A DNA stretch of 32,000 nucleotides from Nostoc punctiforme PCC 73102 (GTDB lineage Bacteria > Cyanobacteriota > Cyanobacteriia > Cyanobacteriales > Nostocaceae): the NCBI RefSeq assembly GCF_000020025.1, contig NC_010628.1:1320001-1352000 (forward strand), given 5' to 3'. The notes beneath the pieces were generated by a model. That model had not been told where the DNA came from and ran no database searches. It worked only from the letters and a program-made list of their open reading frames with translations. Made by a program: the position numbers and the translations under genes. This document shows, piece after piece, positions 4,114 through 18,817 of the stretch; the first letter of the stretch is position 1, and each line of letters starts with the position of its first letter.

Positions 4114-4758
4114 CTACACAACATACACCGTAAAATTAACTAGATTATCCTGGCCAAATCGCAGTACATCGCCATTAAGCAGGCGATATTGCATACCCGG
4201 AGTTAGAGGATTGTTGTTTAAATAAATACCATTTGTACTCATGTCAACAATCATGTATGCATTTTGCGACCAGTCCCAATCGACTCGCGCATGACGACGA
4301 GAGACTATTCCCTCACTGGGAATGCCGGTCAAATCAATTTCTGGCGGCGCTATTCCTGGACTTTGACTGCGGCGACCAATATAACCTCCTTCCCCAACGA
4401 GGTGAAATTCCCTGCCGGTGGTATGAATCAGCTTTAAGGCTGGCGCTCTTTGAGGCGGAGGGACATAAGCAGGCGGTGTTGGTTGATAAGAAACTCGTGG
4501 CTGATAGACTGTTGAATAATCAACGGGAGCCTGTTGGGGAGGTTGGTAATTAGGTTGCTCTGTAGGCGGTCGTTGATACTGAGCAGGTGGTGGTTGACTA
4601 GGTTGTTGCTGAATAGGCGGTGGTTGACTAGGAGGTTGTGGTGTCGGGGAAACTACATTACCCACAGGAGTGGAACACCAGGGACAAACCTTAGCATTGT
4701 TAGGCAGGGCGCGGTTAAAATATTCGCAACTAGGATTGGGGCACCGATTTGCAGGCAT
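4114..4758 (-). CDS. Zinc-ribbon / Pro-Gln-rich linker / FHA domain protein (FraH-like architecture)
   Basis: N-terminal CPNPSC...CPWC four-Cys ribbon, then a PQ-rich low-complexity linker. C-terminal FHA signature: GR......IDL....VSRRHA.......Y.I.D..STNG...N. The start overlaps the stop of the upstream gene by 29 nt. Confidence 0.85.
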   Translation of the reverse strand: MPANRCPNPSCEYFNRALPNNAKVCPWCSTPVGNVVSPTPQPPSQPPPIQQQPSQPPPAQYQRPPTEQPNYQPPQQAPVDYSTVYQPRVSYQPTPPAYVPPPQRAPALKLIHTTGREFHLVGEGGYIGRRSQSPGIAPPEIDLTGIPSEGIVSRRHARVDWDWSQNAYMIVDMSTNGIYLNNNPLTPGMQYRLLNGDVLRFGQDNLVNFTVYVV

Positions 4759-6880
4759 AGGAATTTATATCATCAGGCATAGGTTGTAAAGCTACGAGAC
4801 CTACTTTACTAAGTAAACACTGACCCTGACGAGTGGTTAGCATCTGGGCAAATGTAGAACCACCAGGCAGGCGACTGGTGTCTTTAGGGTACACTACAAA
4901 AATAGGGTATCCCAAGGGGTAGCTTTGGAATGTTGTGACATCAACATAATAATCATCATGTTGACACAAATCATCTGAGGGATTAATTGAGCGGCGATCG
5001 CGCCGTTGAAACAGAGGTTGAATCGCTGATTTTTTGCCATCTGCGATCGCTAGCGGATAACCAGTACACTGGCTCGAAGTTTTACTGATAATGCCAAAGC
5101 TGATAATACCAGTGGTTCGCCCCTCTAAAGTCTCGCTGCGTATCTGGTTCTGGGTTTTTGTTGTATCTATTTTCGTATTTTTAACAGTGTCTTCAAATAA
5201 AGCTTCGTCTTGAAAGACATTTTTGAGAACTATGTCTTTAAATTTACTGATTGCTTCTGGTTCTGTTGGGGCAAAAGGTTTCACAGCTAAATTTGGAAGT
5301 TTGGGACTAATTTGTTGCCAATTGGTAATTTTACCTGTGTAAATTTGACGCAATTGCTCAAGACTTATTTGCCCTCCAAGAGCATTAGCAAGATTTGAGT
5401 CTCTCTTATTAAATGCTACAAAAACAAGTAATCCATCATAAGCAACTTGTTTTTTAGAAAGTTTATCTGTGATGTTCTCTACCAAACTAGTAATTGCAAA
5501 ATCTTTTTTGTTTGTTTCAACTTCTTCGATACTTTTAATCGGATTCTTGACGTTTGATGACAAAACAGGCTCATAGTTAAATGTTGCTGTTGCATCTGGC
5601 TTTGGTCTGGTCAATAACTCTCCTAAACGACTATTTTCTACTGATTGTGTTAAAATATAACTCCATGTACTGTCCTTTTCTCCTGTGTAAGCAAATTGTC
5701 CGGCAGGAACATTAGGGACTTCGGAGAAATTTCGCACAAGTCTAGACCATAATATATATTGATTAGGACTATCTGTTTTTTTGCCCAAAAGCCAATACAA
5801 AATTCCTCCGCCGAGTAGTAATAAAGCCAGAATTACTATCAGGATTAAAGGCATTGGTAAACGCTTTTCTATTGCTTGAGAACCTGGCGATGACACTGAA
5901 CTTTTACCACGATTTTCTTTGGGAAGTTGCAGCAGTGCTTGACGAGCCGTTTCCGCATTCTCGAAAGGAGTTTCTAGACCAATGAGGCGATAAATAAACT
6001 GCTTTAAATGGCTATCAGTATCCGGCCATTGTTGATTATCTCTAGGGTCGAGAGGCTGGTTGGATAAAAAATTAGTTGTCCGTCCTGTCCATAGATAAAA
6101 GGCTAGCAATCCTAATGATTCTAAATCTTGCTCAGGTCTGGCGGGCGCGGGTTGAGGAATAATAGGTGGAATAAATAAGTTTTCCCAGGTCGCTAAATCA
6201 CAAAAGTATATAGAGAATTTTTGATTATTTTCTAGTTTAATTAAAGTACTATCTAAACTGATATTGCCGTGAGTTATACCCAACTGTACTTGATTTGAGG
6301 GAAAACGCAGCTTTTGGGTGTGGAGAAACTGGAGAGTTTGTAAACCTTGATTTAATACTTCCCGCACATCAGGAGATGTCATCGCGCCCTTTTCTATGAG
6401 ATATTTCCCTAAAGTTTGGGATGATTCGATTCCTTGAGTGATCAGATAGCAGCGTTCTCCTTTTTCATCTGCGATCGCTTCTTTAGTTTCTACAAGACGA
6501 AAGTTTTGAATTCGACTATCGGCTAAACTTACCCCACCCACCCGTTTGAAAGTCTCTTTCCGCTTCAGAGTCTCGCTTTCATTAAAACAACGATTGGGTA
6601 GTAGGTATTCTTTGATGATGACAGGCTGTTTATCTTTAAGTTGAATCCCTGAGTATAGGCGGCCTAAACCCCGTACACCAATAAAACTAGCTATTTGATA
6701 AGTTCCCTGACTTCCTTTAATCTCAGCCTCCTGTGGTAAAGTCGCTGGAAAACCACATTCCAAGCAAAACTTAGCCCCCTTGATTTGCTGCGCGGTTTGG
6801 AAAGGGCGATCGCAACTTAAGGGAGAATTATACGAGCAGGGGTATTCTTGATAAAAAGATTCAAATGAAGGCATATACAA
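4730..6880 (-). CDS. Protein-kinase-like protein (catalytic-loop Asp replaced) with four-Cys prefix, one TM helix and a C-terminal periplasmic substrate-binding (PstS/PBP-like) domain
   Basis: CxxxxxxxxC...CLEC prefix; Gly-loop GVRGLGRLY; VIIKEY lysine motif. The catalytic loop reads THGNISLDS instead of H(R/G)DxKxxN, and CDL replaces DFG. TM helix is MPLILIVILALLLLGGGILYWLL, followed by about 340 aa of extracytoplasmic domain. Confidence 0.8.
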   Translation of the reverse strand: MYMPSFESFYQEYPCSYNSPLSCDRPFQTAQQIKGAKFCLECGFPATLPQEAEIKGSQGTYQIASFIGVRGLGRLYSGIQLKDKQPVIIKEYLLPNRCFNESETLKRKETFKRVGGVSLADSRIQNFRLVETKEAIADEKGERCYLITQGIESSQTLGKYLIEKGAMTSPDVREVLNQGLQTLQFLHTQKLRFPSNQVQLGITHGNISLDSTLIKLENNQKFSIYFCDLATWENLFIPPIIPQPAPARPEQDLESLGLLAFYLWTGRTTNFLSNQPLDPRDNQQWPDTDSHLKQFIYRLIGLETPFENAETARQALLQLPKENRGKSSVSSPGSQAIEKRLPMPLILIVILALLLLGGGILYWLLGKKTDSPNQYILWSRLVRNFSEVPNVPAGQFAYTGEKDSTWSYILTQSVENSRLGELLTRPKPDATATFNYEPVLSSNVKNPIKSIEEVETNKKDFAITSLVENITDKLSKKQVAYDGLLVFVAFNKRDSNLANALGGQISLEQLRQIYTGKITNWQQISPKLPNLAVKPFAPTEPEAISKFKDIVLKNVFQDEALFEDTVKNTKIDTTKTQNQIRSETLEGRTTGIISFGIISKTSSQCTGYPLAIADGKKSAIQPLFQRRDRRSINPSDDLCQHDDYYVDVTTFQSYPLGYPIFVVYPKDTSRLPGGSTFAQMLTTRQGQCLLSKVGLVALQPMPDDINSYACKSVPQS

Positions 6881-6917
6881 AAAGTTTCGTGAATTGCGCC
6901 GATTACTTTCGTCGCGC

Positions 6918-7598
6918 TCAAGCGTGAACTAATCCTAACTTGAGGGCAGCCACAATAGCTTGAGTCCGACTAGTAACCTTCAATTTTTCAAAAATACTGG
7001 TGAGATGCGCCTTAACAGTAGCAACTGTTACATATAAATGTTTAGCGATTTCTTCATTAGAAGCACCTTGAGTTAACCAGTATAAAACTTCTTGCTCTCT
7101 TTCGGTTAAATGCACCTCATGACATGCTTTCAGACAAGAGTCTGAATAAGCCTGAAAAAACCGGAAAAATCGACTAGCAACTTCTGAAGGTAAATAAATT
7201 TCCGCTCTTGTAACAGTGTCAATAGCCTCACACAATTGTGTTGCCACACGATTTTTAAACACATAACCGGCGGCTCCCGCCTGCATTGCTCTAAAAATCC
7301 AGTCGTCTTCTTGATGAGCCGACAACACTAAAACTTTGCCAGTGTAAGCAGTTTCCTTAAGACTTGCCAGAACTGTAATCCCATCACATCCCTTCAATTG
7401 CATATCCAGCAAAATTAAATCTGGACACTTCTGGGCTGTAAACTTTAAAACCTGCTCCACAGAATCTGCATCACCTATAACTTCTACAGGTAATGCAGAA
7501 TTAATACTATAAAAATTTAGGAGAGTACGTAATCCTTGGCGGAAGCGTTCTTCATCATCTACCAGCAAAACCGAAAGTTTCTTACTATCATTAGCCAT
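6918..7598 (-). CDS. Response regulator, NarL/LuxR family (REC + HTH)
   Basis: LLVDDE...DLILLDMQL receiver motifs; C-terminal LTEREQEVLYWLTQGASNEEIA...TVKAHLTSIFEKL LuxR-type HTH. Confidence 0.9.
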   Translation of the reverse strand: MANDSKKLSVLLVDDEERFRQGLRTLLNFYSINSALPVEVIGDADSVEQVLKFTAQKCPDLILLDMQLKGCDGITVLASLKETAYTGKVLVLSAHQEDDWIFRAMQAGAAGYVFKNRVATQLCEAIDTVTRAEIYLPSEVASRFFRFFQAYSDSCLKACHEVHLTEREQEVLYWLTQGASNEEIAKHLYVTVATVKAHLTSIFEKLKVTSRTQAIVAALKLGLVHA

Positions 7599-7652: not shown

Positions 7653-8795
7653 TTAATTCCCGCTCCTTGGTCGAGGCAAAATTACAGAAAATTGCGCTCC
7701 ATTTTCTGATAGGGCTTGTGCCCAGATACTTCCTTGATGATCCAAAATAATTTTCTTCGCAATAGTTAAGCCTAGTCCTGTACCTCCTTTGCGCCGGGAA
7801 TAAAATGGGGTAAATACTTTTTGTAAATCCTCTTGTGATAATCCTGGCCCTTGATCTGAAATTTTAATTAAAACTTCATCTTGAAAAACTTGCCAGCTAC
7901 AGGTAATAGTTCCTGAGTTAGGACTAAAATGGACGGCATTACTGAGGATATTATCAAATACTTGTTTCATTTGTAATTTGTCTATCTTCAGTATTGTCGA
8001 TGTATCTGGAATCAATATTTTAAGTTGTTTCTGATTAATTAGAGGCTGTAAGTTTTTGATGCTTTCATCAACTAAACTTCTTAAATCTTGAAGTTTTACC
8101 CTCAGCTTTGCACTTTGTCCACAATCAATTAGCTCATTTAAATTAGTATCTAAATCTTGTATACTTTCGCCGATGATTGTTGCTTGCTCTTGCCAAGGAC
8201 TATCCTCTAAACCTAAGCATAAGTTATGTGCATACAATCCTATAAGCCCTAGAGAGTTACGCAATTGATGGCCTATTCGATGCAAGATATCTTCCAGGAG
8301 TTGAATTTCAGTTTTTTGTCTTCCATAGTCCAAGTAAATATCTGCATACTTACTCAGCAGCATAGCAGAGCGTTTTACATATAATTGCAAGCTCTCTGAT
8401 AGAGGTTTATGAGTAATGATTTGAATGTATTCAGGTTTTTGATTCCTATAGGCAAAAGGGCAAACGTAAGAAATGGATGAAAAATCCTTAAGTTTAAATT
8501 CATGCAAAGTAAAAGCAGGCGGAAAATCTGTAAGCCATGCTTCAGAGCACAAATAAGCTAAAGTTTTTTGGGAAAAAGGAGCTTGGTCTTGACCATAATT
8601 TATAACTTCCTGATGATTTTTCAGCAAGTAATCATGATATACAATCCGAGCGAAAAAAATTGGATATTGACTAGTTAACTGTTCAGACTCTAACTGACAA
8701 TAGCTCTGAATATCTGAGGAGTTCAAATAATTCGAGCCATTCTCCAGTTTTTGTACATAAAAGCCTAGTGTCATAGCTTCACTCGCTTTTTGCAA
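7653..8795 (-). CDS. Cytoplasmic sensor histidine kinase (HisKA + HATPase_c) with an uncharacterised N-terminal domain
   Basis: H-box RIGHQLRNSL; N-box ILSNAVHFS; G-boxes DQGPGL and GGTGLGLTIAKKI. No obvious TM segments. An alternative start is Met8 (8774). Confidence 0.85.
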   Translation of the reverse strand: MQKASEAMTLGFYVQKLENGSNYLNSSDIQSYCQLESEQLTSQYPIFFARIVYHDYLLKNHQEVINYGQDQAPFSQKTLAYLCSEAWLTDFPPAFTLHEFKLKDFSSISYVCPFAYRNQKPEYIQIITHKPLSESLQLYVKRSAMLLSKYADIYLDYGRQKTEIQLLEDILHRIGHQLRNSLGLIGLYAHNLCLGLEDSPWQEQATIIGESIQDLDTNLNELIDCGQSAKLRVKLQDLRSLVDESIKNLQPLINQKQLKILIPDTSTILKIDKLQMKQVFDNILSNAVHFSPNSGTITCSWQVFQDEVLIKISDQGPGLSQEDLQKVFTPFYSRRKGGTGLGLTIAKKIILDHQGSIWAQALSENGAQFSVILPRPRSGN

Positions 8796-9098
8796 CCAAA
8801 TGTTTTTATTCTTCTGCTGACCAGTATAAATTTATGCAGTCTTAGTAATGTTTATTTTTTTATTAAGTTATCTTGTTAGATAATTAATACAAAGAATTAT
8901 TAAGTTTATGTTTATATATGCTTATCCTTTTTCTAAGTATATATAGGTACGTAAGGAAAATTATTTGTTACATCGAAATAAATTTTGTGGTGTGGTCATC
9001 TCGCCACTCCTATTAAGAACTGCTCCAGACTAATCTACAAACTGAAGTTACTGCTTTTCGGATTTTTGAAAATTTAATATCTTCCAGCCCACTCAAAT

Positions 9099-9182
9099 GG
9101 GGAGCAGGGGGCAGGGGAGCAGGGGGGAAAGAATTAATAACCAGTACCCAATGACAAATGACAAATGACCAATGACCAATTG
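9099..9182. repeat. STRR-type heptamer repeats (GGGGAGC/AGGGGGC run, then 4x AATGAC[AC])
   Basis: Tandem heptamers read directly at 9099-9127 and 9150-9180, upstream of the CIS module. Confidence 0.8.
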
Positions 9183-9271
9183 AAAAAATATCGACAAAAG
9201 TCTAATTAACTTTAGAAGGCTGATACATATACTGTAGATGCATCTGGATTAGCTACCAGCAGAACACCTTC

Positions 9272-10111
9272 ATGCTTATCTTCGTTCTTCAAACTTTAGC
9301 CGAAATTCTAGCTGGAGGAACCTCACTTACCAGTACAGAGCAAATTGACTTTAGCCATCCTGGTAATCGAAGGGAAGAGGGAGCAGGCCCGACTCTCAAT
9401 TTATACATTTTTGATATACGTGAGAGTAAGCAGGTACAACATTCTGGTAGGCAAGTTGAACGCAAGCTAACACGCGCTCTACAACCTGCCACTGTAAATT
9501 GGGCACCCGCTTGGTTTGATGTTTCACTGCTATTAACAGCCTGGGATAGAACAGCTTTAGGGGAGCATCACTTTATCAGTGAGGCGTTGGCTGTGCTGTT
9601 GCGCCATCGCACCTTGGAAGAGGAGTTTTTGGTTCCTGAATTACGGGGCTATGGTAATTTGAACATGACAGTTGCCCTAGAGCCGCCAATTGAAATTGGC
9701 TCTTTATGGAGCGCTCTCAATGTGCCATTGCGTTCAGCCTTATATTTGACAGTTACAATCCCCTTCGAGCCACAACCTACTCCAGTACCTTTGGTTTGGG
9801 AGCGGATTTTCAATTTGCGAAATCAATTGTCTCGTGATAGCGACAGTCTAGTATTAACCAGGCGAGTTGCGATCGCGGGTATTGTCAAAAGTGCGGTGAC
9901 AAATCTGCCACTGGTAGCGGCAGAAGTAGCTGTGAGGGGAACTGACAAGTCCATATCAACTACTAAAGAAGGACTGTTCTTTTTTGAAGACCTTCATTTA
10001 GGTAATTATGTTTTGACGCTGAATCATCCTGGCTATTTACCCCAAAACGTCAATGCATTGGTAGATAACCAAAGTAATACTTTCAAAGAAATATTTCTAA
10101 CTCCTGAATAA
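9272..10111 (+). CDS. DUF4255 (Pvc16/Afp16 N-terminal-like, tail cap/terminator) protein with a C-terminal carboxypeptidase-regulatory-like beta-sandwich
   Basis: IDFSHPG....GPTLNLYIFDIRES matches the DUF4255 signature. The C-terminus (GIVKSA..N.PL..AEVAV.GTDKS..T.KEGLFFFEDLHLGNYVLTLNHPGY) looks like a CarboxypepD_reg-type domain. Confidence 0.8.
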   Translation: MLIFVLQTLAEILAGGTSLTSTEQIDFSHPGNRREEGAGPTLNLYIFDIRESKQVQHSGRQVERKLTRALQPATVNWAPAWFDVSLLLTAWDRTALGEHHFISEALAVLLRHRTLEEEFLVPELRGYGNLNMTVALEPPIEIGSLWSALNVPLRSALYLTVTIPFEPQPTPVPLVWERIFNLRNQLSRDSDSLVLTRRVAIAGIVKSAVTNLPLVAAEVAVRGTDKSISTTKEGLFFFEDLHLGNYVLTLNHPGYLPQNVNALVDNQSNTFKEIFLTPE

Positions 10112-11940: not shown

Positions 11941-12396
11941 ATGGCAGGCGAATTTTTAACCTCTTGTAAATTTTACTTTGAGGCTGACGGCATTACTGAT
12001 AAATTCATCAAAGAAATTAGTGGCTTAGGCGTTGAGAATACTCCAGCGCAAGAAGTCCACGGTTCATCTAAAGGCGCTAAACTAATGCGTCAAGCTACAC
12101 CAACTGTTGTTAAATTTACCAACATCACAGTAAAAGTCATCGCCACTGATGATATAGACCTTTATAAATGGTATCAAGATTGTAACGAAGACATGGGAGA
12201 CCCTCGGAAGTGGTCACAGAAGCGTAAAACTGGTTCAGTGGTTGCTTATGACCAACAAGGCTCTGAAAAAGCACGCTGGAACATTGTCAATTGTTATCCT
12301 TGTAAATACACTGGCCCTACCTTAACTGCCTCTGGTGGTGATATGGCAAATGAAACAGTTGAATTGGTTCACGAAGGAATTAAACGAATCAAATAA
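11941..12396 (+). CDS. Tail tube protein, T4 gp19-like (CIS tube, paralog 1)
   Basis: FYFEADG....FKEISGLG.E......HG...G......PT.VKF.NITVK......DLYKWY, then W.I.NCYPCKY.GP.L.A......E.VELVHEG. AAGGAG SD at 11926-11931. Confidence 0.9.
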   Translation: MAGEFLTSCKFYFEADGITDKFIKEISGLGVENTPAQEVHGSSKGAKLMRQATPTVVKFTNITVKVIATDDIDLYKWYQDCNEDMGDPRKWSQKRKTGSVVAYDQQGSEKARWNIVNCYPCKYTGPTLTASGGDMANETVELVHEGIKRIK

Positions 12397-12405
12397 TCGT
12401 AATTA

Positions 12406-12560
12406 CGTAAAGCCTGCGGCATAGCTTTGCTTAGAGCGTAGCGGTAGCAAGTCCGCAAGCTTCATTACGAATTACGTTAGCGCAGCGTAAAGCCTGCGGC
12501 ATGGCTTCGCTTAGAGCGACGCAGGAGCGTCATTACGAATTACGAATTACGAATTATTTA
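12406..12560. repeat. Duplicated small dispersed repeat (CGTAAAGCCTGCGGCATRGCTTYGCTTAGAGCG) plus AATTACG heptamer run
   Basis: Copies at 12406-12444 and 12486-12525. ATTACGA heptamers at about 12465-12476 and 12531-12556. Confidence 0.75.
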
Positions 12561-13058
12561 ACAGTGGTACAATCCGCAAGCCGAATTCCAGAAGTTCTTA
12601 CGGCCCATCGGTTCTATTTAGAACTGACACTAGAAGGTCAAAACGATGCCAATTGCTTTTTTTTGGAGTGTCAAGGCTTCAAAAGAACACAAGAGGTAAT
12701 TGAAATTTCTGAAGTTACTTCTCAAACCTGGGGTAAAAAAGGGCAATCAAAAGGCCAGGTGGTGAGAACTAAGCTTCCTAGCAATCCTAAGAGTGGTAAT
12801 CTCACTCTGCGTAGAGGTACTACCAACTCTATGGATTTTTGGAAGTGGTTTGAAAAAGTTGAAAAAGGTAATTGGTCTGAGCAACGTAGACTTGTTGCTT
12901 TGTCTATTTATAATCAGGCAAATCAAGAAATAGCTAGATTTGAATTAGCCGGTGCTTGGCCTGCAAGTTACAAAATTGCCGATGTTAACGCCCGCAGCCA
13001 TGACATCGAAATTGAGGAAGTGGAGGTTGCTTTTGAGGAATTTAAACGTGTGAAGTAA
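12501..13058 (+). CDS. Tail tube protein, gp19-like (CIS tube, paralog 2); true start probably GTG 12564
   Basis: RFYLELTLEG....FLECQGF....EVIEI......, then LAGAWPASYKI.D......IEIEEVEVAFEEF. The first 21 codons of the listed ORF lie inside the dispersed repeat, so the in-frame GTG at 12564 is more plausible. Confidence 0.85.
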   Translation: MASLRATQERHYELRITNYLTVVQSASRIPEVLTAHRFYLELTLEGQNDANCFFLECQGFKRTQEVIEISEVTSQTWGKKGQSKGQVVRTKLPSNPKSGNLTLRRGTTNSMDFWKWFEKVEKGNWSEQRRLVALSIYNQANQEIARFELAGAWPASYKIADVNARSHDIEIEEVEVAFEEFKRVK

Positions 13059-13069
13059 TTAGGAGAAGT

Positions 13070-13417
13070 ATGTTTCCCACAGAGTTTGAATTTACACTGC
13101 CAAAGGGGTATCTAGACTCTGAAGGCAACCTCCACCGCAAAGGTGTAATGCGGTTATCAACGGCAATAGACGAGATTGCACCCTTGCGTGACCCACGCGT
13201 TAAAGCTAATCCTGTTTATGCCACAATTATTATCTTGTCACGAGTGATTACTCACTTGGGTGCTTTATCAGAAGTTACTCCTGCAATAGTAGAAAACTTT
13301 TTTGCCCAAGATTTAAATTATCTCCAAGATTTTTATCGGCGAATTAATGGCTTGGAAGGTGAAACTTCCATACCAGAAGATACAATAAACTCCCCCGAAG
13401 CACTTATTCATAATTGA
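13070..13417 (+). CDS. Small conserved CIS-associated protein, tail-assembly-chaperone-like (paralog A)
   Basis: 115 aa. AGGAG SD lies upstream. Clear paralog of 13694-14077 (EFxFTLPxG..DSE...HR.GVMRL.TA.DEI......RV..NP.Y......L.RVIT.LG.L..V.P.......L..D..YL..FY.RIN). Confidence 0.75.
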   Translation: MFPTEFEFTLPKGYLDSEGNLHRKGVMRLSTAIDEIAPLRDPRVKANPVYATIIILSRVITHLGALSEVTPAIVENFFAQDLNYLQDFYRRINGLEGETSIPEDTINSPEALIHN

Positions 13418-13418
13418 A

Positions 13419-13690
13419 TTGGACATGGGGCATTGGGTATGGGCGTGGGGAGCAGAAAGCAAAGACTCATTAACGGAGTTCAAAGCTTCATTAACGGAGT
13501 TTAAAGACTCATTAACGGAGTTCAAAGACTCATTAACGGAGTTCAAAGCCTCATTAATGGAGTTCAAAGCCTCATTAATGGAGTTCAAAGCCTCATTAAT
13601 GGAGTTCAAAGCCTCATTAATGGAGTTCAAAGACTCATCCCCTATTCTCAATGCCCCATGCCCCATGCCCAATCCCCAATTCCCAAATGA
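13419..13690. repeat. Composite repeat: 8 full copies plus one partial copy of a 21-nt tandem unit (AAAGMCTCATTAAYGGAGTTC), flanked by inverted G-rich/C-rich heptamer arms
   Basis: Units at 13461-13628, period 21; the first four are the AACGG type and the last four the AATGG type. Left arm ATGGGGCATTGGGTATGGGCGTGGGG; right arm ATGCCCCATGCCCCATGCCCAATCCCCAATTCCC. Confidence 0.85.
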
Positions 13691-13693
13691 CTT

Positions 13694-14077
13694 ATGCCCC
13701 GTAAAAAGGATACTCTCTCCACAGAATTTGCCTTCACTCTTCCTAGAGGATTGAGTGATAGTGAACACCGAATACATCGTCATGGGGTGATGCGTTTAGC
13801 CACCGCTAAAGATGAAATTTTGGTGCAACAAGAGCGCAGAGTTCAGGAAAATCCAGCTTATGGTGTTTTGGTGATGCTTGCACGGGTTATTACTCGCTTG
13901 GGCAGTCTTAATTCTGTTAGCCCTGATTTACTCGAAGAACTTCTTTTACATGACATTGCCTATCTTCGAGAATTTTATAATCGAATCAATCAGCAAGGCG
14001 ATGTACATATTCCTACACAATGTCCCCATTGTAATACCCAATTTTCAGTGGAGCTAGAACTAGCGGGGGAGTCGTAA
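13694..14077 (+). CDS. Small conserved CIS-associated protein, tail-assembly-chaperone-like (paralog B) with C-terminal CPHC motif
   Basis: 127 aa, paralog of 13070-13417. Stop TAA at 14075-14077, immediately after a G5 run. Confidence 0.75.
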   Translation: MPRKKDTLSTEFAFTLPRGLSDSEHRIHRHGVMRLATAKDEILVQQERRVQENPAYGVLVMLARVITRLGSLNSVSPDLLEELLLHDIAYLREFYNRINQQGDVHIPTQCPHCNTQFSVELELAGES

Positions 14078-14223
14078 GCTACCCCTCCGATACTTTATAT
14101 GAGGAGGTAGCTTTTATTGCTTATCATTTCCACTGGTCACAAGATGATATTTTAAATTTAGAACATACTACCCGTCAGCGCTGGGTGGCAGAAATCAATA
14201 AAATTAACCAAAAATTAATATGA
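14035..14223 (+). CDS. Start-less conserved-looking reading frame (DUF6760-like), probably expressed as a -1 frameshift extension of 13694-14077
   Basis: 62 sense codons (YPIFSGARTSGGVVSYPSDTLYEEVAFIAYHFHWSQDDILNLEHTTRQRWVAEINKINQKLI). There is no ATG, GTG or TTG until 12 codons from the end. It is in the -1 frame relative to paralog B and overlaps it at 14035-14074. Its TGA overlaps the next gene's ATG (ATGA at 14220-14223). Confidence 0.5.
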   Translation, partial: YPIFSGARTSGGVVSYPSDTLYEEVAFIAYHFHWSQDDILNLEHTTRQRWVAEINKINQKLI

Positions 14224-16214
14224 AAGTAAAAGTTAGCTATTCACCAAATCTAAGTGAAGTCAATGAAGTTGACCTGACCACAGAAACTCCAACGAGAGGA
14301 GAATGGTTAATAGGTCGTTCTCCTGATTCTGATTTAGTCTTAGACAGTCCTGATATTAGTCGGGTACATGCTAAGTTTTTTGTTAAAGCTGGAAATTACT
14401 ACTTCTCTGACCTTGGCAGTAGAAATGGCTCAATATTTAATGGAAAACAAGCCGAAAAAGATCGACCATATTCTTTGAGTGATGGAGATATTATCAGGAT
14501 TGCAGATTACGTTCTGATCTTAGAAGCAGTTGCTCCCGCTTATGAGCAACCAGAGACAGTCTTTAGAATTATAGACCCTTCACTGTTTTCTCGGCCGCGA
14601 TCGCCTGAAAATGTCAGCGCAGCCAATGTCGTTAATCCATCCCCAGAAGTAGTTAGCGAAGTTCCAGCGCCTATTACTCCCGAAGTAGAAACACCTTCTC
14701 CAGAAGTCAGCGAAACCTCCGAAGTTGTTGCTAATCAACCCGATGATGTCATTCCGGTTGTTGAGGTAATCGCCCCTGAAAACATTATTCAGTCACCAGA
14801 AGCAGTTAGCGAAGTTCCACACGATGTCCATGATGAAATTGTGGATTTGCAATCAGTTGCGCCAGAAGTCAGTGCAGATGTTGAAGAAGTAGAGATTCCA
14901 GAAGTTAGCGAAAATGATGAGGAAGTTTCTTTTACTGTAGCCGAAGCTGCGATCGCAGCACCTGAAAATATCATCGAAACTTCTGAAGAGGAAATTACAC
15001 TTCCAGAAGTCACTCATGATGAGGTTACAGACTTCGAAACAGCACTGGCGACAGAATCTACTTTCGTGCAACGGCGTGATACAAGTAGTATTCCCCAAGC
15101 TACTGACCATGAAGATGCAGAGTTTGAGGCAGCACTAGAAGCAGAAGTTACCTTCGTACAGCCACGTGATATTTTCCACCAAGTTCCTGCAACCTCTCCT
15201 GAAGATGCAGAGTTAGAGGCGGCGCTGGAAGCAGAAGTCACCTTCGTGCAGCCGCGTGATATTTTCGGCGAAGTATCTAATGAAGAAAGTACTGTTCTGG
15301 AAGTTACTCATAATGAAAATGAAGTAGTAGATTTAGATACACCAGTCGCAGAAGAAGTCGGTTTAGAGTTTGGCGAATTTGTCAACGAAGTTACTGAAGA
15401 AGAGGAAATTCAGCCGCAAGAAACATTGAGCCAAGATACACAAGATATCAATGATGAACTAGCAGATTTAGATATTTTATTTACGGCAGAAGAAAGCGTA
15501 GATATTGACGAAGTAGAACCTAGTTTTGCTGTTGATGAAACAGGAGGTGAAGTTTCTGAAGCATTGACTGAGCCTGATAATATCGTTGTAGAAGTTTCTA
15601 GCAATCAATACATTGATTTGAATAATACAAATACAGAAGAAGCCAGCGTAAATGTTGATGATGTTGTTCTAGTAAGTGAAGTTGCTGAATTAGCTGATAT
15701 TCAATCTTTAGAAACAACAAAAAGCGAAGTTCCTGAGAGTATCAGTCAAACTATTGAAGAGGTTACTGAAGTAGAAGCGACTCAATTTGATGAAACTCCA
15801 GAAGAAATAAATGTAAGTGAGCCTCCCCAAGTGATTATTGAAAGAAACATAGTACTTATCGCTCACGAGAGCAAGAAATCAGAACTTGCTGAATTTGTTT
15901 CTCAACATCAGGAATTTTTCTCACAGAGCTTTACAATTACCTGGCCATCTGTTGGCGAAGTCTTACATCAACAAGCAGGAATAACAATTAGTCAGCAAAC
16001 CCCCGCACCAATTTCTGGAGGATATCAAACAATTGCTTCATTGGTTGGAGCAGGAGAAATTTTAGCAGTTATTTTCCTGAGAGATTTGCTGCAACCTCAG
16101 CCTGGTCAGGCAAATGAAGAAGCTCTGCTCAGATTATGCACTATTAATCAAGTTTTACTGGCAACTAATTTGCCAACAGCAGAAGCGATCGTGCATTATC
16201 TTAAACATATATAG
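14220..16214 (+). CDS. FHA domain / long acidic repeat region / methylglyoxal-synthase-like (MGS-like) domain protein
   Basis: N-terminal FHA (WLIGRSPDSDLVLDSPDISRVHAKF......YYFSDLGSRNGS..NG). About 400 aa are E/V/P/S-rich with PEV(S/V)E motifs and three 30-aa repeats. The C-terminus aligns by eye to MgsA (IVLIAHESKK...SGGYQTIASLVGAGEILAVIF..D......A.EEALLRLC.IN.V.LATN..TA). Confidence 0.85.
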   Translation: MKVKVSYSPNLSEVNEVDLTTETPTRGEWLIGRSPDSDLVLDSPDISRVHAKFFVKAGNYYFSDLGSRNGSIFNGKQAEKDRPYSLSDGDIIRIADYVLILEAVAPAYEQPETVFRIIDPSLFSRPRSPENVSAANVVNPSPEVVSEVPAPITPEVETPSPEVSETSEVVANQPDDVIPVVEVIAPENIIQSPEAVSEVPHDVHDEIVDLQSVAPEVSADVEEVEIPEVSENDEEVSFTVAEAAIAAPENIIETSEEEITLPEVTHDEVTDFETALATESTFVQRRDTSSIPQATDHEDAEFEAALEAEVTFVQPRDIFHQVPATSPEDAELEAALEAEVTFVQPRDIFGEVSNEESTVLEVTHNENEVVDLDTPVAEEVGLEFGEFVNEVTEEEEIQPQETLSQDTQDINDELADLDILFTAEESVDIDEVEPSFAVDETGGEVSEALTEPDNIVVEVSSNQYIDLNNTNTEEASVNVDDVVLVSEVAELADIQSLETTKSEVPESISQTIEEVTEVEATQFDETPEEINVSEPPQVIIERNIVLIAHESKKSELAEFVSQHQEFFSQSFTITWPSVGEVLHQQAGITISQQTPAPISGGYQTIASLVGAGEILAVIFLRDLLQPQPGQANEEALLRLCTINQVLLATNLPTAEAIVHYLKHI

Positions 16215-16502
16215 GAATTCACTTTGATTTCTGTTTGCGGAGCATAGCGTAGCCAATTTATTTGCAGTCAGGCAATAGGCAATAGGTAATGGGAAAGCAG
16301 GCAATACTTTTTGGTTAAGGGGAAAAGGGGAAAGGAGGGAAGGGTTTAAATTTATCTTTACTCCAAGCGCAGTAAGCTTTCCCCAGTCCAAAATAGAGTT
16401 ATTCGAAAAGTATTGGGAAAGCAGGCTTTTTGAGTTGTACTGAGGTTTTTCACGAAATCAAATATAAGCTCTATATACCCTTAGTTAATAATTCGTAAGC
16501 AA

Positions 16503-16539
16503 CAAGATACCCGATTTCTTAAATAAGTTGGGTATCTTG
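16503..16539. other. Perfect 10-bp inverted repeat (CAAGATACCC...GGGTATCTTG) with a 17-nt loop
   Basis: Read directly. Lies about 100 nt upstream of the CHASE2 kinase start, in an AT-rich spacer. Confidence 0.5.
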
Positions 16540-16636
16540 GTATTTCGAGAAAAGTTTCTAATTGCATAGAATAATTTCAATGATGAAAATTAGGATAAAA
16601 AATATGTATATTTTAAAATAAAACTTACCTAGAGAA

Positions 16637-18817
16637 ATGGTTACAAACTTAAAAAGTTTATTTAGACAGCCAGTTATTCTTTCAAGTGCGATCGCTACAA
16701 TTTTACTACTAGGCATTCAAAAACTTGGGGTTTTCGAACCTCTAGAAATGAAGGTCTACGACCAAATGATGCAATTACGTGGCGACCCAGGCCCAGACTC
16801 TCGTCTATTAATTGTTGCTTTAACTGAAAAAGATATTCAAAAATGGAATTGGCCCCTATCTGGCGAACTTCTAGAGCGACTATTGGGCAAACTTGAAGCT
16901 TATGAACCGCGAGCCATTGGTCTAGATATTTTCCGTGACTTACCTGTACAACCTGGTCATGAAAAACTACTGCAACGCTTACAACAGAGCGATATCATCA
17001 TTCCTATCTGTAAACATTCTGGTTCTAACAATCCGGGAATAGCAGCCCCAAAGGGGATTGAAGCAGAGCGAGTAGGATTTAATGATGTAGTAGAAGATAC
17101 TGACGCGACAATTCGTCGCAACCTATTATTGGTAAGTGCAGAAGAGTCCGATTCCTGTCAAAGTACTTATTCTTTTAGCTTGCAATTAGCACTTAAATAC
17201 TTAGAAGTTGGAGGTATCCAGCTAAAATTTACCCCCAAAAAAGAACTACAACTACGAGATACTGTATTTAAACCCCTACAAAGCAACGCTGGCGGTTATC
17301 AGAAAGCGGATACAAATGGATACCAAATTTTGCTTAACTACCATTCTGGTCATCAGATTGCCCAGAAAGTAACTATTACAGAAATACTTGAAAATCAAGT
17401 TAAACCAGATTTGGTGAAAGACCGCATCGTTTTAATTGGTTCAACAGCCAATAGTTTAAATGATATTTTTAACACGCCATTTGCTACTGGTAAGTCAGAT
17501 AATTCCGGGAAAATGGCAGGAATTGAAATTCATGCCCATAGCGTTAGTCAAATTCTCAGTGCTGTTCTTAACAAACAGCCATTATTTTGGTTTCTACCTG
17601 AATGGGGGAAAGTCCTGTGGATATGGGGATGGACTGTAGTTGGTGGGTTGCTGGTATCGCGGATTCAACATCCACTAGGCTTAGGACTGGCAGGAGCAAC
17701 AGCCCTTGCAGTCTTATTTGGAAGCAATTTTGTCATTTTTACCCAAGCTGGATGGTTCCCTGTAATACCTCCGACTTTGGGGTTAGTATTTACCGCCGGG
17801 AGTGTTCTTGCTTATAGTGCTTATAAAACGAAACAAGAGCAACAAGAAATTACCCAACGGGTTCAAGAACACCAACAATTAATTGTGGAATTGCAAGGTC
17901 TTTTACGGCAGCGCGGCGATGCCTCAAATGAAGCACCAACTGTAATTGCTGATTCCATCGGGCAAGAAATTTCATTAGGAACTCTACTAAACAATCGCTA
18001 CAAAATTACTCAAGGCTTGGGTTCTGGAGGATTTAGCAATACTTATTTAGCTGATGATATCCAGCGTCCTGGTAATCCGCAGTGTGTGGTTAAACAGTTG
18101 CGTCCCCCCCGCCAAGATGCAGAATATTTAAATGTCGTCAGACGATTATTTGACGCTGAAGCACAAATTTTAGAAACCTTGGGTAAGCATCCACAAATCC
18201 CTCAACTGCTAGCTTTTTTTGAAGAAAATCGGCAATTTTCTCTAGTGCAAGAATTTGTTCGAGGGCACGCTATGGACAAAGAAGTAACCTCAGGAAAGCG
18301 ACTAAAACAAGCTGAAGTTGTGGAAATGCTTAAAGAAGTTTTACACGTACTTGTTTTTGTTCACAGCTATGGTGTAATCCATCGAGATATCAAACCTAGT
18401 AACTTGATTAGACGAGAATCAGATCAACACATTGTTTTAATTGACTTTGGCGCTGTTAAGCAAATTCATCCTCAGCAGCAAGAAGCTCAGACTATTTCAA
18501 TTGGTACGCCTGGTTATGCACCTTCTGAGCAAATGAGCGGTTTGCCAAAACTCAACAGCGATATTTATGCGTTGGGAATTATGGGAATTCAAGGTTTAAC
18601 TGGGGTAGATCCTAGAGAATTTCGCAGAGATATAAATACTGGTGAAATAATTATTCAAGGTGAAGCTGATGGCAATCAACAGACTTGGCAACATTGGCGC
18701 GAACTAACTGACGCTACAAACGAGTTAGTTATTATTTTAAATAGAATGGCGCATTTCGATTTTACTCAACGATATCAGTCAGCAGCAGAGGTTCTCAAAG
18801 CTCTCGAAAGTCCTTAG
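16637..18817 (+). CDS. CHASE2 sensor domain / TM / Ser-Thr protein kinase
   Basis: CHASE2-like N-terminus (LLIVALTEKDI..W.WPL.........L....PRAIGLDIFRD), TM helices around aa 320-395. Intact kinase motifs: GSGGFSNTY, VVKQL, HRDIKPSNL, DFGAVK, GTPGYAPSEQ. Confidence 0.9.
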   Translation: MVTNLKSLFRQPVILSSAIATILLLGIQKLGVFEPLEMKVYDQMMQLRGDPGPDSRLLIVALTEKDIQKWNWPLSGELLERLLGKLEAYEPRAIGLDIFRDLPVQPGHEKLLQRLQQSDIIIPICKHSGSNNPGIAAPKGIEAERVGFNDVVEDTDATIRRNLLLVSAEESDSCQSTYSFSLQLALKYLEVGGIQLKFTPKKELQLRDTVFKPLQSNAGGYQKADTNGYQILLNYHSGHQIAQKVTITEILENQVKPDLVKDRIVLIGSTANSLNDIFNTPFATGKSDNSGKMAGIEIHAHSVSQILSAVLNKQPLFWFLPEWGKVLWIWGWTVVGGLLVSRIQHPLGLGLAGATALAVLFGSNFVIFTQAGWFPVIPPTLGLVFTAGSVLAYSAYKTKQEQQEITQRVQEHQQLIVELQGLLRQRGDASNEAPTVIADSIGQEISLGTLLNNRYKITQGLGSGGFSNTYLADDIQRPGNPQCVVKQLRPPRQDAEYLNVVRRLFDAEAQILETLGKHPQIPQLLAFFEENRQFSLVQEFVRGHAMDKEVTSGKRLKQAEVVEMLKEVLHVLVFVHSYGVIHRDIKPSNLIRRESDQHIVLIDFGAVKQIHPQQQEAQTISIGTPGYAPSEQMSGLPKLNSDIYALGIMGIQGLTGVDPREFRRDINTGEIIIQGEADGNQQTWQHWRELTDATNELVIILNRMAHFDFTQRYQSAAEVLKALESP

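Follow-up and report, generated by a model that had tools for sequence, protein, structure and literature searches.

The window, a stretch of 32,000 nucleotides from Nostoc punctiforme PCC 73102, contains the CIS sheath gene Npun_F1112, and the identity of the locus is confirmed by the published qPCR primers for this gene, which match the window exactly at 10322-10341 and 10396-10415. The structural genes are on the forward strand and begin with a Cis16-like cap protein with Pvc16_N and CarboxypepD_reg domains (9272-10111, Pfam E 2.2e-19, ACC79837, Npun_F1111), followed by the sheath (10142-11803, Phage_sheath_1 and Phage_sheath_1C, ACC79838) and two tube proteins of the Phage_T4_gp19 family (11941-12396, E 1.4e-33, and 12564-13058, E 2.7e-28), the start of the second being taken from the 164-aa gene model of its relatives. 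Two small chaperone-like proteins come next (13070-13417 and 13694-14077); they are paralogues whose order is kept in all loci, and the first matched no Pfam family. After them comes a DUF6760 ORF (14035-14223, Pfam E 1.4e-16), which is shifted to the -1 frame with respect to the gene before it, has no canonical start, and whose stop overlaps the ATG of the gene for the FHA-deadMGS protein described below. The peptide, the 142-nt spacing and the stop/start overlap are conserved in about 55 of 68 loci, and L002, L004 and L108 have the ORF annotated as a gene.

We compared the window with 80 species-level loci, the best 80 of 580 matches across species genomes, in all of which the same core gene order recurs. 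Their sheaths are 80-99 % identical and they represent more than 12 genera (including Nostoc, Desmonostoc, Calothrix, Rivularia, Stigonema, Scytonema, Chamaesiphon, Rhizonema and Cyanomargarita), although most are Nostocales and many are close Nostoc relatives with sheaths 97-99 % identical. The earlier note had seen a CIS module in the window, which is correct for the cap/sheath/tube operon, but the spike/baseplate operon lies outside, and of a CIS with two operons the window thus contains only half. The other operon, as seen in related loci, encodes a 77-aa protein, cis5, a Pro-rich protein of about 1130 aa, CIS_tube, VgrG, PAAR, gp25, Baseplate_J and Tail_P2_I.

Two genes for DUF4157/eCIS_core proteins, also on the forward strand, belong to the same cluster. 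The first (1-1395, probably Npun_F1103) is open from base 1 and represents the C-terminal part of a protein of more than 726 aa, whose identical full-length N-terminus with the DUF4157 HExxH region was found on contig L010. The second (2487-3899, eCIS_core E 1.6e-33, probably Npun_F1106) has DUF4157 counterparts at the equivalent place in related loci. Both products are candidate CIS effectors. Given the cap, sheath, tube and DUF4157 genes of the window and the second operon of related loci, we propose that Npun_F1091-F1118 is best explained as a complete, chromosomally inherited CIS with dedicated control genes. The Anabaena PCC 7120 tCIS (all3313-all3327; Weiss et al. 2022, PMC8894136) and the Streptomyces cytoplasmic CIS are likewise Afp-like systems of filamentous multicellular bacteria with DUF4157 effector genes beside the cluster, and the question of the trigger is common to all of them. 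The tCIS is however set apart by its gene set and sizes, having a 484-aa sheath, Cis16A/B, Cis19 and one contiguous operon (PMC8894136), against a 553-aa sheath, a single 279-aa CarboxypepD_reg cap and two divergent operons in Nostoc. The tCIS paper mentions no FHA protein, kinase or regulator (PMC8894136), and the literature searched is consistent with the view of the earlier note that a phospho-signalling circuit had not previously been tied to cyanobacterial CIS.

The same note had listed six signalling genes around the structural ones, and Pfam and NCBIfam agree with it on their positions and domains. One of them ends the sheath operon and encodes the 664-aa FHA-deadMGS protein (14220-16214, forward strand, FHA E 3e-19, ACC79843, Npun_F1117). 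Its FHA domain (aa 29-94) is followed by an acidic disordered linker and by a C-terminal MGS-like domain (aa 541-660; TIGR00160, 88 bits), which had escaped the first reading. This domain is homologous to MgsA over about 120 residues (PDB 8u2v, E 2.8e-21; 1b93, E 1.3e-13) but differs by its fusion to the FHA domain and linker and by the replacement of active-site residues: Asp71 is Tyr, His98 is Gly, Asp101 is Asn and the phosphate-binding Thr45/47/48 are lost. The catalytic Asp is changed to Y, F or H in every library representative reaching the MGS motif, whereas the orthologues taken from the loci all have Tyr there and show no variation in the signature SGGYQ. Judging from these substitutions, the domain is catalytically dead. 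True MgsA enzymes are homohexamers, and such an arrangement would match the six-fold symmetry of the CIS particle.

The FHA residues GR, SRxH and SRNG are invariant across all sampled FHA-deadMGS orthologues, and the phospho-threonine pocket is intact. The protein also matches Pfam Yop-YscD_cpl (E 7e-10). Within the linker of Npun_F1117 there are three ExTFVQxRD motifs with threonines at aa 281, 311 and 341. The motif, more generally ExT-phi-V-Q-x-x-D, is present in 1-8 copies per orthologue and is kept in linkers that are otherwise unalignable, with 72 occurrences in 25 linkers compared to 3.0 +/- 1.7 in shuffles. Gln at +3 of Thr is not the classic FHA preference, and the motif could alternatively be a phosphorylation-independent docking strand.

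Four more signalling genes form an operon on the reverse strand. The promoter-proximal one encodes a histidine kinase (7653-8774, HATPase_c E 7.4e-25, probably Npun_R1110); its ORF extends to 8795, but the likely start is at 8774, and relatives are annotated with a 373-aa gene model. It is cytoplasmic, with no TM helix, and its N-terminal domain of about 165 aa is lineage-specific, its profile finding no match in PDB. It is followed by a NarL/LuxR-type response regulator (6918-7598, Response_reg E 1.7e-22, GerE E 2.4e-19, ACC79835, probably Npun_R1109) that retains the acidic pocket D13/D14, the acceptor D65, S93 and K115. The third product (4730-6874, ORF to 6880 with the likely start at 6874, probably Npun_R1108) had been described as a kinase-like protein with an extracytoplasmic binding domain, which was borne out and can be refined to a membrane pseudokinase with a Zn-ribbon, a PknB-fold kinase-like domain, one TM helix (aa 336-367) and a periplasmic PBP_like_2 domain. 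The fold is confirmed by three lines of evidence: a profile-profile match of hhalign to real kinases (97.8 %, E 7.8e-13), the AF2 model, whose best Foldseek matches are PknB of S. aureus and M. tuberculosis (E 2.6e-11, TM 0.66), and PADLOC kinase models. We call it a pseudokinase because its catalytic loop reads HGNISLDS in place of HRDxKxxN, with HGN instead of HRD, in every homologue examined. Overlapping its gene by 29 nt is that of a small FHA protein (4114-4758, FHA E 2.7e-12, ACC79833, probably Npun_R1107), composed of a Zn-ribbon, a Pro/Gln-rich linker and a C-terminal FHA domain in which the phospho-threonine-binding residues GR..SRRH..STNG are visible.

The sixth gene encodes a CHASE2-TM-Ser/Thr kinase (16637-18817, forward strand, CHASE2 E 2.8e-70, Pkinase E 2.6e-35, ACC79844, Npun_F1118). 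The earlier description of it as active agrees with its intact GSGGF, HRDIKPSN and DFG motifs, by which the kinase is catalytically intact at the level of sequence. Outside the Nostoc clade, only Calothrix PCC 7103 was found to have an orthologue following FHA-deadMGS. Some Ser/Thr kinase is nevertheless located near the cluster in 28 of 37 full-length loci (the remaining nine have none nearby), and these kinases are of three architectures that recur in separate lineages, being soluble or WD40-fused outside Nostoc. In Nostoc, a hairpin and a promoter-like site lie between the FHA-deadMGS gene and the kinase gene, which looks like a separate transcription unit. As had been noted before, the window encodes no PP2C phosphatase in any ORF of at least 80 aa, and none was found among the conserved neighbours in the 80 related loci.

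Conservation of the neighbourhood, suggested earlier as a check, was largely confirmed. In 65 of 67 loci FHA-deadMGS comes after the chaperone-like genes, and it was observed only within the sheath operon in the loci examined. The HK-RR-pseudokinase-FHA operon accompanies the CIS in 52 of 61 loci, standing between the two CIS operons where these adjoin, and in the rearranged loci L077 and L082 it has relocated together with the CIS. The dissociation of signalling genes and CIS that had been named as evidence against the idea was also found in part, in both directions. Some CIS loci have no four-gene operon nearby, and pseudokinase-FHA pairs are also found over 10 kb away from CIS genes. Nostoc sp. 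MS1 has, at such a distance, a CHASE2 kinase gene divergent from an HK-RR-pseudokinase-FHA operon, which is the layout of the window minus the sheath operon, and other CIS-remote pairs adjoin CHAT/caspase-like, DUF928, DUF1822 and CHASE2 genes. In the NJ tree the CIS-remote copies fall into a single derived clade, which branches from within the CIS-linked copies of distant genera, and the CIS-linked state therefore looks ancestral.

The clearest regulatory signal we found is transcriptional, a conserved operator common to the promoters of both structural operons. The spacer between the divergent operons (8796-9271) is AT-rich as previously described (33 % GC, 40 % in the window), and phylogenetic footprinting revealed in it an invariant 20-mer, TCGACAAAAGTCTAATTAAC, at 9191-9210 on the forward strand, here called the CIS box. 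It is unique within the window and includes the palindrome TCGAC-N4-GTCTA (9191-9204), overlapping a -35-like TTAACT (9206-9211); the -10-like element TATACT/TACTGT of the sheath-operon promoter (9228-9235, forward strand) has TAnnnT conserved in the alignment, and a consensus promoter scan listed TTAACT-16-TATACT. In 84 of 99 loci there is just one exact copy of the 15-mer of the box. A degenerate pattern gave 95 matches in 1.45 Mb, nearly all at CIS promoters, where about two would be expected by a hand estimate. The baseplate operon is preceded by a variant of the box, 55-70 nt 5′ of its first gene, in 19 of 20 loci, so that both structural operons carry TCGAC-N4-G(T/G)CTA at the -35 position or a short way upstream of it. 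Extra copies precede a DUF4157 gene (L056 type), a WD40 operon (L103) and the relocated HK operon of L082, and apart from L082 the box was not found in the HK-proximal part of the spacer.

The DosR box has the core GGGAC-N4-GTCCC and the ComA box is a 6-4-6 palindrome. The CIS box resembles them in its short palindromic form around 4 central bp (TCGAC-AAAA-GTCTA, with GAC-N4-GTC inside it). Its position at about -45 would allow an activator to touch polymerase, as at NarL/LuxR operators, and a GerE-type regulator is encoded alongside. The NarL-type regulator (6918-7598) is the most parsimonious candidate for its binder. Unlike the DosR and ComA operators, however, this predicted operator persists in loci without an adjacent regulator, being equally conserved where no HK-RR lies within 10 kb (L053, L056, L062, L074, L094 and L108), and the binder could therefore be an unlinked factor.

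The earlier note compared the locus with the threonine-phosphorylation control of T6SS. The H1-T6SS of P. aeruginosa (PpkA/PppA/Fha1, TagQRST) and the Agrobacterium PpkA-TssL-Fha system likewise combine a contractile sheath-tube machine with an FHA protein and a Hanks-type kinase that acts as membrane sensor, and the logic that we propose for Nostoc is the same as theirs, leading from an envelope signal through Thr phosphorylation and FHA binding to assembly or firing. The analogy is plausible and the signalling genes are conserved, but it does not extend to the parts. The Nostoc machine is an Afp/PVC-type CIS, the locus has no PP2C phosphatase, and the sensor of its clade-restricted kinase is CHASE2 and not vWA, other kinase types substituting in other genera. 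FHA-deadMGS is not an orthologue of TagH/Fha1. In place of the C-terminal region of TagH it carries the linker with its multiple motifs and the dead MGS domain; the FHA domains of the window score weakly, 52 and 40 bits, with the T6SS model TIGR03354, far below its cut-off of 120. The Nostoc locus adds a two-component pair, a pseudokinase and the operator common to both operons. Another comparison is the MviN pseudokinase-FhaA-PknB module of M. tuberculosis, reportedly described by Gee et al. in 2012, where a membrane PknB-fold cytoplasmic pseudokinase with an extracytoplasmic ligand-binding domain also has an FHA partner and a true Hanks kinase encoded nearby. In Nostoc, by contrast, the extracytoplasmic domain is PstS/PBP-like, both partners bear N-terminal Zn-ribbons, the pair is co-transcribed with the histidine kinase and the NarL-type regulator, and it has no link to a lipid II flippase.

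We find it somewhat more probable than its opposite that the CIS is controlled on two tiers, in transcription through the operator and in the particle through FHA and phospho-threonine. On the first tier, a dimeric helix-turn-helix activator would bind the CIS box and fire both operons together. Published transcriptomes are in favour of such joint firing, as Npun_F1091-R1102 and F1111-F1116 share a burst of expression in the middle of the dark period (PMC12691664). This activator may be the NarL-type regulator, phosphorylated by the soluble histidine kinase (7653-8774), to which the pseudokinase with its periplasmic PstS-like domain and the small FHA partner would probably relay an envelope or nutrient signal, by analogy with MviN-FhaA. 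On the second tier, FHA-deadMGS is made together with the particle proteins, although F1117 and F1118 are absent from the genes with elevated expression in PMC12691664, and a neighbouring Ser/Thr kinase (the CHASE2 sensor kinase in Nostoc, a soluble or WD40-fused one elsewhere) may phosphorylate the linker threonines or a CIS component, after which binding of FHA to phosphothreonine would control assembly, placement or firing. This would resemble Fha1/PpkA of H1-T6SS, with unrelated parts and no dedicated PP2C. The conserved phospho-signalling genes and the shared operator offer a concrete route to testing how such machines switch on.

Control could also be limited to transcription by the HK-RR pair with pseudokinase/FHA input, FHA-deadMGS being a structural or assembly accessory, its FHA fold a phosphorylation-independent interaction module as in T3SS YscD, and the nearby kinases having other targets. 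We regard this as unlikely, even if the operator is the strongest cis-signal found, FHA-deadMGS has the Yop-YscD_cpl match, kinase type and presence vary among loci, the Nostoc kinase gene seems to be transcribed separately and PP2C was not found in the window ORFs or conserved neighbours. Invariant GR, SRxH and SRNG residues would be unexpected had phosphate binding been lost, and the Thr motif repeated in unalignable linkers and the recurrence of three kinase architectures beside the operon also speak for the second tier. A little less likely still is that the signalling genes belong to a wider stress or cell-death programme, with the CIS as one output or an insertion into an older kinase/two-component island, so that adjacency reflects history more than dedicated control. 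The gene set of Nostoc sp. MS1 and the CHAT/caspase-like and other neighbours of CIS-remote pairs fit such a programme. It would also suit this programme that the signalling genes are not induced along with the structural ones in the published transcriptomes, where F1103-R1110 fall outside the module of the mid-dark burst (PMC12691664). Regulators are, however, often not co-induced with their targets, the CIS-remote copies are nested in one derived clade, the operon stands between the two CIS operons and relocates with them, and FHA-deadMGS keeps to the sheath operon.

That the genes are functionally unrelated and adjacent by chance or through genome kinship is improbable and already disfavoured. 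The predominance of Nostocales and of close Nostoc relatives among the 80 loci would suit it, but the core order persists despite differing flanks (baseplate operon, LytR/GT3, TPR, large HK on one side; HSP20, PsbA, WD40 on the other) and is kept in Chamaesiphon and in a MAG labelled Leptolyngbyaceae, the overlap of DUF6760 with the FHA-deadMGS start is conserved, and the relocated module of L077 and L082 still adjoins the CIS. An earlier publication presents the locus as a ‘putative prophage’, reads the mid-dark burst of Npun_F1091-F1118 as prophage induction and mentions a ‘head morphogenesis GpW’ (PMC12691664); the embedded genes would then have phage recombination or regulation functions. 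We consider this very improbable, as no capsid, portal, terminase or integrase family is present among the genes examined in the window and the 21-kb related loci, and the same core order recurs across species genomes in the best 80 of 580 matches. The eCIS hallmarks Pvc16 cap, DUF4157/eCIS_core, PAAR and VgrG are present, with an AAA ATPase in some relatives, and the family called ‘GpW’, as found in the related operon, is GPW_gp25, the baseplate wedge gp25.

Based on the ORF listing and on Pfam and NCBIfam scans, the window carries the sheath operon of a contractile injection system (CIS) on the forward strand, with a Pvc16_N cap gene (9272-10111), a sheath gene (10142-11803), two tube genes (11941-13058) and two paralogous chaperone-like genes (13070-14077). 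Downstream on the same strand lie a DUF6760 ORF (about 14035-14223), the gene for a 664-aa FHA protein (14220-16214), which we call FHA-deadMGS after a degenerate methylglyoxal synthase domain at its C-terminus, and the gene for a CHASE2 Ser/Thr kinase (16637-18817). Upstream of the cap gene there is an AT-rich spacer (8775-9271), and beyond it, on the reverse strand, genes for a soluble histidine kinase (HK, 7653-8774), a NarL-type response regulator (RR, 6918-7598), a 714-aa membrane kinase-like protein with a PBP_like_2 ectodomain (the pseudokinase, 4730-6874) and a small FHA protein (4114-4758). The left end is occupied by the C-terminal part of a large DUF4157/eCIS_core protein (1-1395, forward), XisI and XisH (1542-2308, reverse) and a second DUF4157/eCIS_core protein (2487-3899, forward). 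From about 19 kb to the end of the window, the recognisable genes are housekeeping ones (MOSC, fibrillin, RpiA, pentapeptide, SLH, CP12, LptF/G). All six signalling genes described in the earlier note were recovered with the domains attributed to them, and its remark that the window lacks a PP2C phosphatase held when the window ORFs were scanned.

The window encodes proteins identical to the Nostoc punctiforme ATCC 29133/PCC 73102 entries ACC79833-ACC79844. Judging by the consecutive accession numbers, the genes from the cap through the second chaperone-like gene should be Npun_F1111-F1116, FHA-deadMGS F1117 and the CHASE2 kinase F1118; HK, RR and pseudokinase should be R1110, R1109 and R1108, and the small FHA protein probably R1107. 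Exact-sequence look-up of the two DUF4157 ORFs matched no record, probably because of differing gene starts. The XisH/XisI pair separates these two genes, which are candidate effectors (1-3899), and among relatives this effector region is the most variable stretch of the cluster in gene number, length and orientation.

The same region was labelled a putative prophage (Npun_F1091-F1118) in a diel study (PMC12691664, mBio 2025), where its annotation includes a 'head morphogenesis GpW' and 'five tail fiber proteins'. In that study the structural genes F1091-R1102 and F1111-F1116 burst jointly at one mid-dark time point, and F1103-R1110 are not members of this co-expression module. The Pfam families found in the window are those of a sheath (Phage_sheath_1/1C), a tube (two Phage_T4_gp19 genes) and a Pvc16/Afp16-type cap (Pvc16_N). 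No spike or baseplate genes were found in the window; spike (VgrG, PAAR) and baseplate (gp25, gp6/J, P2-I) genes form an adjacent operon in L097 and L098 (L labels denote related loci in other genomes), and the start of this baseplate operon is visible in L002, L003, L018 and others. In relatives it begins just past the DUF4157 gene and runs in the order 77-aa gene, cis5-like tube protein, ~1130-aa Pro-rich protein, CIS_tube, VgrG, PAAR, gp25, Baseplate_J and Tail_P2_I. In the related operon, the family behind the 'head GpW' label is GPW_gp25, the gp25 baseplate wedge, and scanning genes of the 32-kb window and the 21-kb related loci revealed no capsid, portal or terminase family. On the genes scanned, the prophage reading was rejected as very unlikely. 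The published annotation of an inducible prophage appears to be a misread CIS, and therefore the mid-dark burst would be CIS expression; the window carries one half of a complete CIS. The thylakoid-anchored CIS of Anabaena PCC 7120 (tCIS, PMC8894136) differs in having a 484-aa sheath, Cis16A/B and a single operon, and because the two differ when compared by gene content, we take the present system for another cyanobacterial CIS lineage. No anti-phage defence system was indicated, as PADLOC matched only generic kinase (PD-T4-6, mad6) and generic HTH models.

[quoted passage not shown] Unlike the T6SS core, with its TssB/C sheath and TssJLM membrane complex, the sheath and baseplate match phage/eCIS families, and no T6SS membrane-complex family was seen in the window or in the related baseplate operon. 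A PppA-type PP2C was absent from the window ORFs and from the conserved neighbours of 80 related loci. The FHA proteins are not of the Fha1/TagH type, as their TIGR03354 scores of 52.3 and 39.7 bits fall below the cut-off of 120.25 and only the FHA fold matches. Lacking a T6SS core, a PP2C and a TagH protein, the system does not belong to the T6SS pathway. What stands of the proposal is that the signalling genes, FHA-deadMGS above all, are integral to this CIS lineage; judging from the sequences, a phospho-threonine/FHA step is plausible. In agreement with the note, the literature searched contained no report of an FHA, kinase or two-component link to a non-T6SS CIS. The supplements of the tCIS paper (PMC8894136) and the diel paper (PMC12691664) contained nothing on FHA, kinases or Npun_F1117/F1118, and no mention of these Npun genes was found in the literature searched beyond PMC12691664.

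The conservation of the neighbourhood was assessed starting from the sheath protein, which we scanned against a set of species-representative genomes, one for each species. The lineage is widespread in filamentous cyanobacteria, with at least 580 matches in this set. We kept the best 80 relatives (sheath 80-99% identical; Nostoc, Desmonostoc, Anabaena, Calothrix, Rivularia, Stigonema, Scytonema, Chamaesiphon, Rhizonema, Cyanomargarita, Plectonema and others), searched all ORFs of their loci with the window proteins and clustered the remaining ORFs. Cap, sheath, both tube genes, both chaperone-like genes and the FHA protein were colinear in all loci among these best 80 of at least 580. FHA-deadMGS was present in 65 of the 67 loci reaching at least 1.5 kb beyond the second chaperone-like gene, HK-RR-pseudokinase(-FHA) in 52 of the 61 whose sequence extends 7.5 kb or more 5′ of the cap gene, and a Ser/Thr kinase in 28 of the 37 full-length loci, so the neighbourhood test suggested in the earlier note came out largely positive. 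In L077 and L082 the four-gene operon (HK, RR, pseudokinase, small FHA) is relocated to the opposite end of the sheath operon with its adjacency kept. The L098 layout, cap (reverse), HK, RR, pseudokinase and FHA (forward), DUF4157 (reverse) and baseplate operon (forward), places the four signalling genes between both CIS operons. The outer flanks are highly variable, and therefore the conserved core is not merely frozen synteny. The kinase type varies: only in the Nostoc clade and Calothrix PCC 7103 does a CHASE2 kinase orthologue come after the FHA gene, a soluble Ser/Thr kinase lies immediately 5′ of the cap gene in L056, L058, L068 and L071, a Ser/Thr kinase is found elsewhere in the cluster in L077, L081, L082, L088, L094 and L095, and L108 has a kinase-WD40 fusion.

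Some relatives carry further genes at these loci. A conserved pair, encoding a WD40 protein (~780 aa, with a 400-aa unassigned N-terminal region) and a ~765-aa protein with weak Ig-like matches only, occurs in non-Nostoc members (L072, L078, L080-L082, L088, L089, L091, L092, L096, L103), either after FHA-deadMGS or before the cap gene. In L056, L058, L071 and L086 the sheath operon is adjoined by a Cis15-like AAA+ ATPase with a winged-helix domain and by a second Pvc16_N protein of 426 aa; neither was seen in the window.

In the reverse direction, we inspected seven pseudokinase contexts starting from a Chamaesiphon pseudokinase. One was canonical (L100/L101). In L103, HK-RR-pseudokinase-FHA is divergent from an operon of WD40, ~750-aa protein and kinase genes, itself CIS-associated elsewhere; a perfect copy of the CIS box, a palindromic promoter element, lies upstream of this WD40 operon, and the contig stops before a sheath gene could show. 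In L106 (Nostoc sp. MS1) a CHASE2-kinase and HK-RR-pseudokinase-FHA are divergently oriented and no CIS gene lies within 10 kb, and in L102, L105 and L107 the pseudokinase-FHA pair stands alone beside CHAT/caspase-like, DUF928, DUF1822 or CHASE2 genes. In the neighbour-joining tree, the CIS-free pseudokinase copies form one clade, nested as sister to the CIS-linked Nostoc clade; the Rivularia, Calothrix, Stigonema and Chamaesiphon copies, which are CIS-linked, fall outside it. In Calothrix NIES-2098 the sheath operon, FHA gene included, has no four-gene operon nearby, and the pseudokinase belongs to the CIS-free clade. From this nesting the four-gene module looks ancestrally CIS-linked, with duplication or unlinking in some Nostocales. 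Signalling genes with no CIS gene nearby (L106, L102, L105, L107) and a CIS with no such module nearby (NIES-2098) do occur; this matches in part what the earlier note had named as evidence against its idea and weakens the case for the module, and that for FHA-deadMGS is unaffected. The neighbours of the CIS-free pairs in L102, L105, L106 and L107 hint at a tie with cyanobacterial caspase-like systems.

The best-supported layer of control is transcriptional. When the cap-gene upstream regions of 17 diverse loci were aligned, they were unalignable save one block, (A)TCGACAAAAGTCTAATTAAC, with a conserved TAnnnT ~20 nt downstream. This CIS box occurs once in the window (9191-9210, 62-81 nt 5′ of the ATG) and overlaps the -35-like hexamer of the sole consensus promoter match in the spacer. 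Its core is the palindrome TCGAC-N4-GTCTA, and the exact 15-mer was found once per locus in 84 of 99 loci. In 19 of 20 loci a variant, TCGAC(T/C)TTTGGCTA, precedes the first gene of the baseplate operon by 55-70 nt. By hand estimate, about 2 sites of the degenerate pattern would be expected in 1.45 Mb; 95 were found, nearly all at the promoters of both operons and a few upstream of DUF4157 genes. Near the HK start no box was found except in L082, where it precedes the relocated HK operon. A box-like TCGAGAAAAGTTTC upstream of the CHASE2 kinase was not counted, having 3 mismatches and being conserved only among close Nostoc. We read the box as a DNA site and not an RNA element because it lies upstream of the -10; an Rfam scan of the window gave no match. 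The adjacent GerE-type RR would be the obvious candidate to bind it, and the GAC-N4-GTC core resembles DosR-type sites. As the box is equally conserved where no HK-RR is nearby, the RR is kept here as a candidate only. An operator common to both promoters explains their published co-expression (PMC12691664).

Short repeats typical of Nostoc, G-rich (GGGGAGCAGGGGGCAGGGGAGCAGGGGGG) or heptamer-like (CAAATGA/CCAATGA), are found in the spacer at 9100-9180. They are not part of the conserved footprint, and much of the difference in spacer length among strains is due to them.

The two-component pair is of the NarL type. The RR has the full set of receiver residues, including the acceptor Asp, and a GerE HTH, and the HK has HATPase_c and a visible H-box (GHQLRNSL), though the Pfam HisKA model gave no score. 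The HK lacks a TM helix and its N-terminal domain has no known match; a profile of 13 orthologues found no relative in PDB even at E = 10. The CHASE2 kinase has the intact motifs of an active Hanks-type kinase (GSGGF at aa 462, VVK, HRDIKPSN at aa 582, DFG at aa 603). The pseudokinase has the kinase fold in its cytoplasmic domain (hhalign against real kinases 97.8%; AF2 model with mean pLDDT 77.7 and PknB of S. aureus and M. tuberculosis as best Foldseek matches), and HGN(I/L)xLDS replaces HRDxKxxN in its catalytic loop in all 41 homologues examined. With this loop and only the VAIK Lys and DFG Asp retained, it does not qualify as an active Hanks-type kinase, hence our name for it. It has one TM helix and a PstS-like ectodomain, and its N-terminus, like that of the small FHA protein, carries a Cys-rich Zn-ribbon-like segment. 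A perfect hairpin, GATACCCGAtttcttaaataagTTGGGTATC, lies 3′ of the FHA-deadMGS gene (about 16500-16572). Between it and the CHASE2 kinase there is a promoter-like TCGAGA-16-TAGAAT, whose hexamer region is similar to the CIS box with 3 mismatches. Close Nostoc loci conserve the hairpin and the promoter-like site, which suggests that this kinase is a separate transcription unit.

The C-terminal 120 residues of FHA-deadMGS are homologous to methylglyoxal synthase (TIGR00160, 88 bits; PDB 8u2v, E 2.8e-21). In the alignment to solved MgsA structures, Asp71, His98, Asp101 and Thr45/47/48 correspond to Y, G, N and W-P-S-V, so that catalytic and phosphate-binding residues are replaced and the domain does not qualify as the enzyme. 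The dead signature SGGYQ is unchanged across 25 diverse orthologues, and the Asp71 position is Y, F or H in every member reaching the motif (~100 clusters from a library of 1.84 billion representatives). The residues of the FHA phosphopeptide pocket (GR Arg, Ser-x-x-His, NG Asn) are present in both FHA proteins of the window and invariant in the 25 FHA-deadMGS orthologues. The acidic linker is 240 to 636 aa long and unalignable, yet it holds 1-8 copies of [E/D]-x-T-[FYVI]-[VI]-Q-x-x-[D/E]. In 25 linkers the motif was counted 72 times, shuffled sequences giving 3.0 +/- 1.7; a related segment, ETVVRIINPS, immediately follows the FHA domain. A 'TVVQ' match in the second tube protein was discarded, as it falls in the ORF extension 5′ of the likely start. 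The ATG of FHA-deadMGS overlaps the TGA of the DUF6760 ORF at a constant 142 nt from the preceding stop in about 55 of 68 loci.

From these sequence features we infer that FHA-deadMGS may be a particle-associated accessory whose FHA domain reads phospho-threonine, with the Thr motifs of the linker as candidate kinase sites. True MgsA is hexameric, and by analogy this habit might fit the six-fold symmetry of the particle. A more elaborate and rather unlikely picture is that FHA-deadMGS acts as a new CIS gatekeeper, in which a six-fold dead-enzyme scaffold would sit on the particle, sensor kinases would write the several Thr motifs on its disordered arms, its own FHA domains would read them, and multivalent contacts would decide assembly, clustering at membrane sites or firing. 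How Afp-like injection systems are switched on and triggered inside bacteria is a question that tCIS and the Streptomyces CIS share. The locus offers named, conserved candidates for each step: the pseudokinase with its periplasmic PstS-like sensor, the CHASE2 sensor kinase, the HK-RR pair, an operator of 14 bp in each operon promoter and an FHA protein co-made with the particle. If true, the gatekeeper together with the CIS-box regulon would give non-T6SS contractile injection systems their first described route from signal to trigger. Confirmation would carry the T6SS principle of phospho-threonine/FHA control to the eCIS branch via unrelated parts, show that a metabolic enzyme fold can end up, as a dead methylglyoxal synthase, in the role of nanomachine accessory, and correct the published prophage annotation. 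N. punctiforme is genetically tractable, and a diel burst of exactly these operons is already published, read there as prophage induction (PMC12691664).

Several smaller features were also noticed. A 444-aa ORF (28036-29370) without a Pfam family harbours tandem repeats of 48 bp and 84 bp (28116-28552; 97% matches) and has no bearing on the finding. Between the paralogous chaperone-like genes there is a 21-bp tandem repeat (13460-13638, 8.5 copies, 94% matches), which generates heptad-like spurious ORFs on both strands (13419-13754 forward, 13313-13783 reverse) and is present, absent or inverted in close Nostoc loci. The DUF6760 ORF (14035-14223; Pfam E 1.4e-16) occupies the -1 frame with respect to the second chaperone-like gene and lacks an ATG, GTG or TTG start; a GCGGGGGAG run (14063-14077) lies just 5′ of the stop of that gene. 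By analogy with the G/GT tail-assembly chaperones of phages, the two could be joined by a programmed -1 frameshift; the DUF6760 peptide is very highly conserved across genera.
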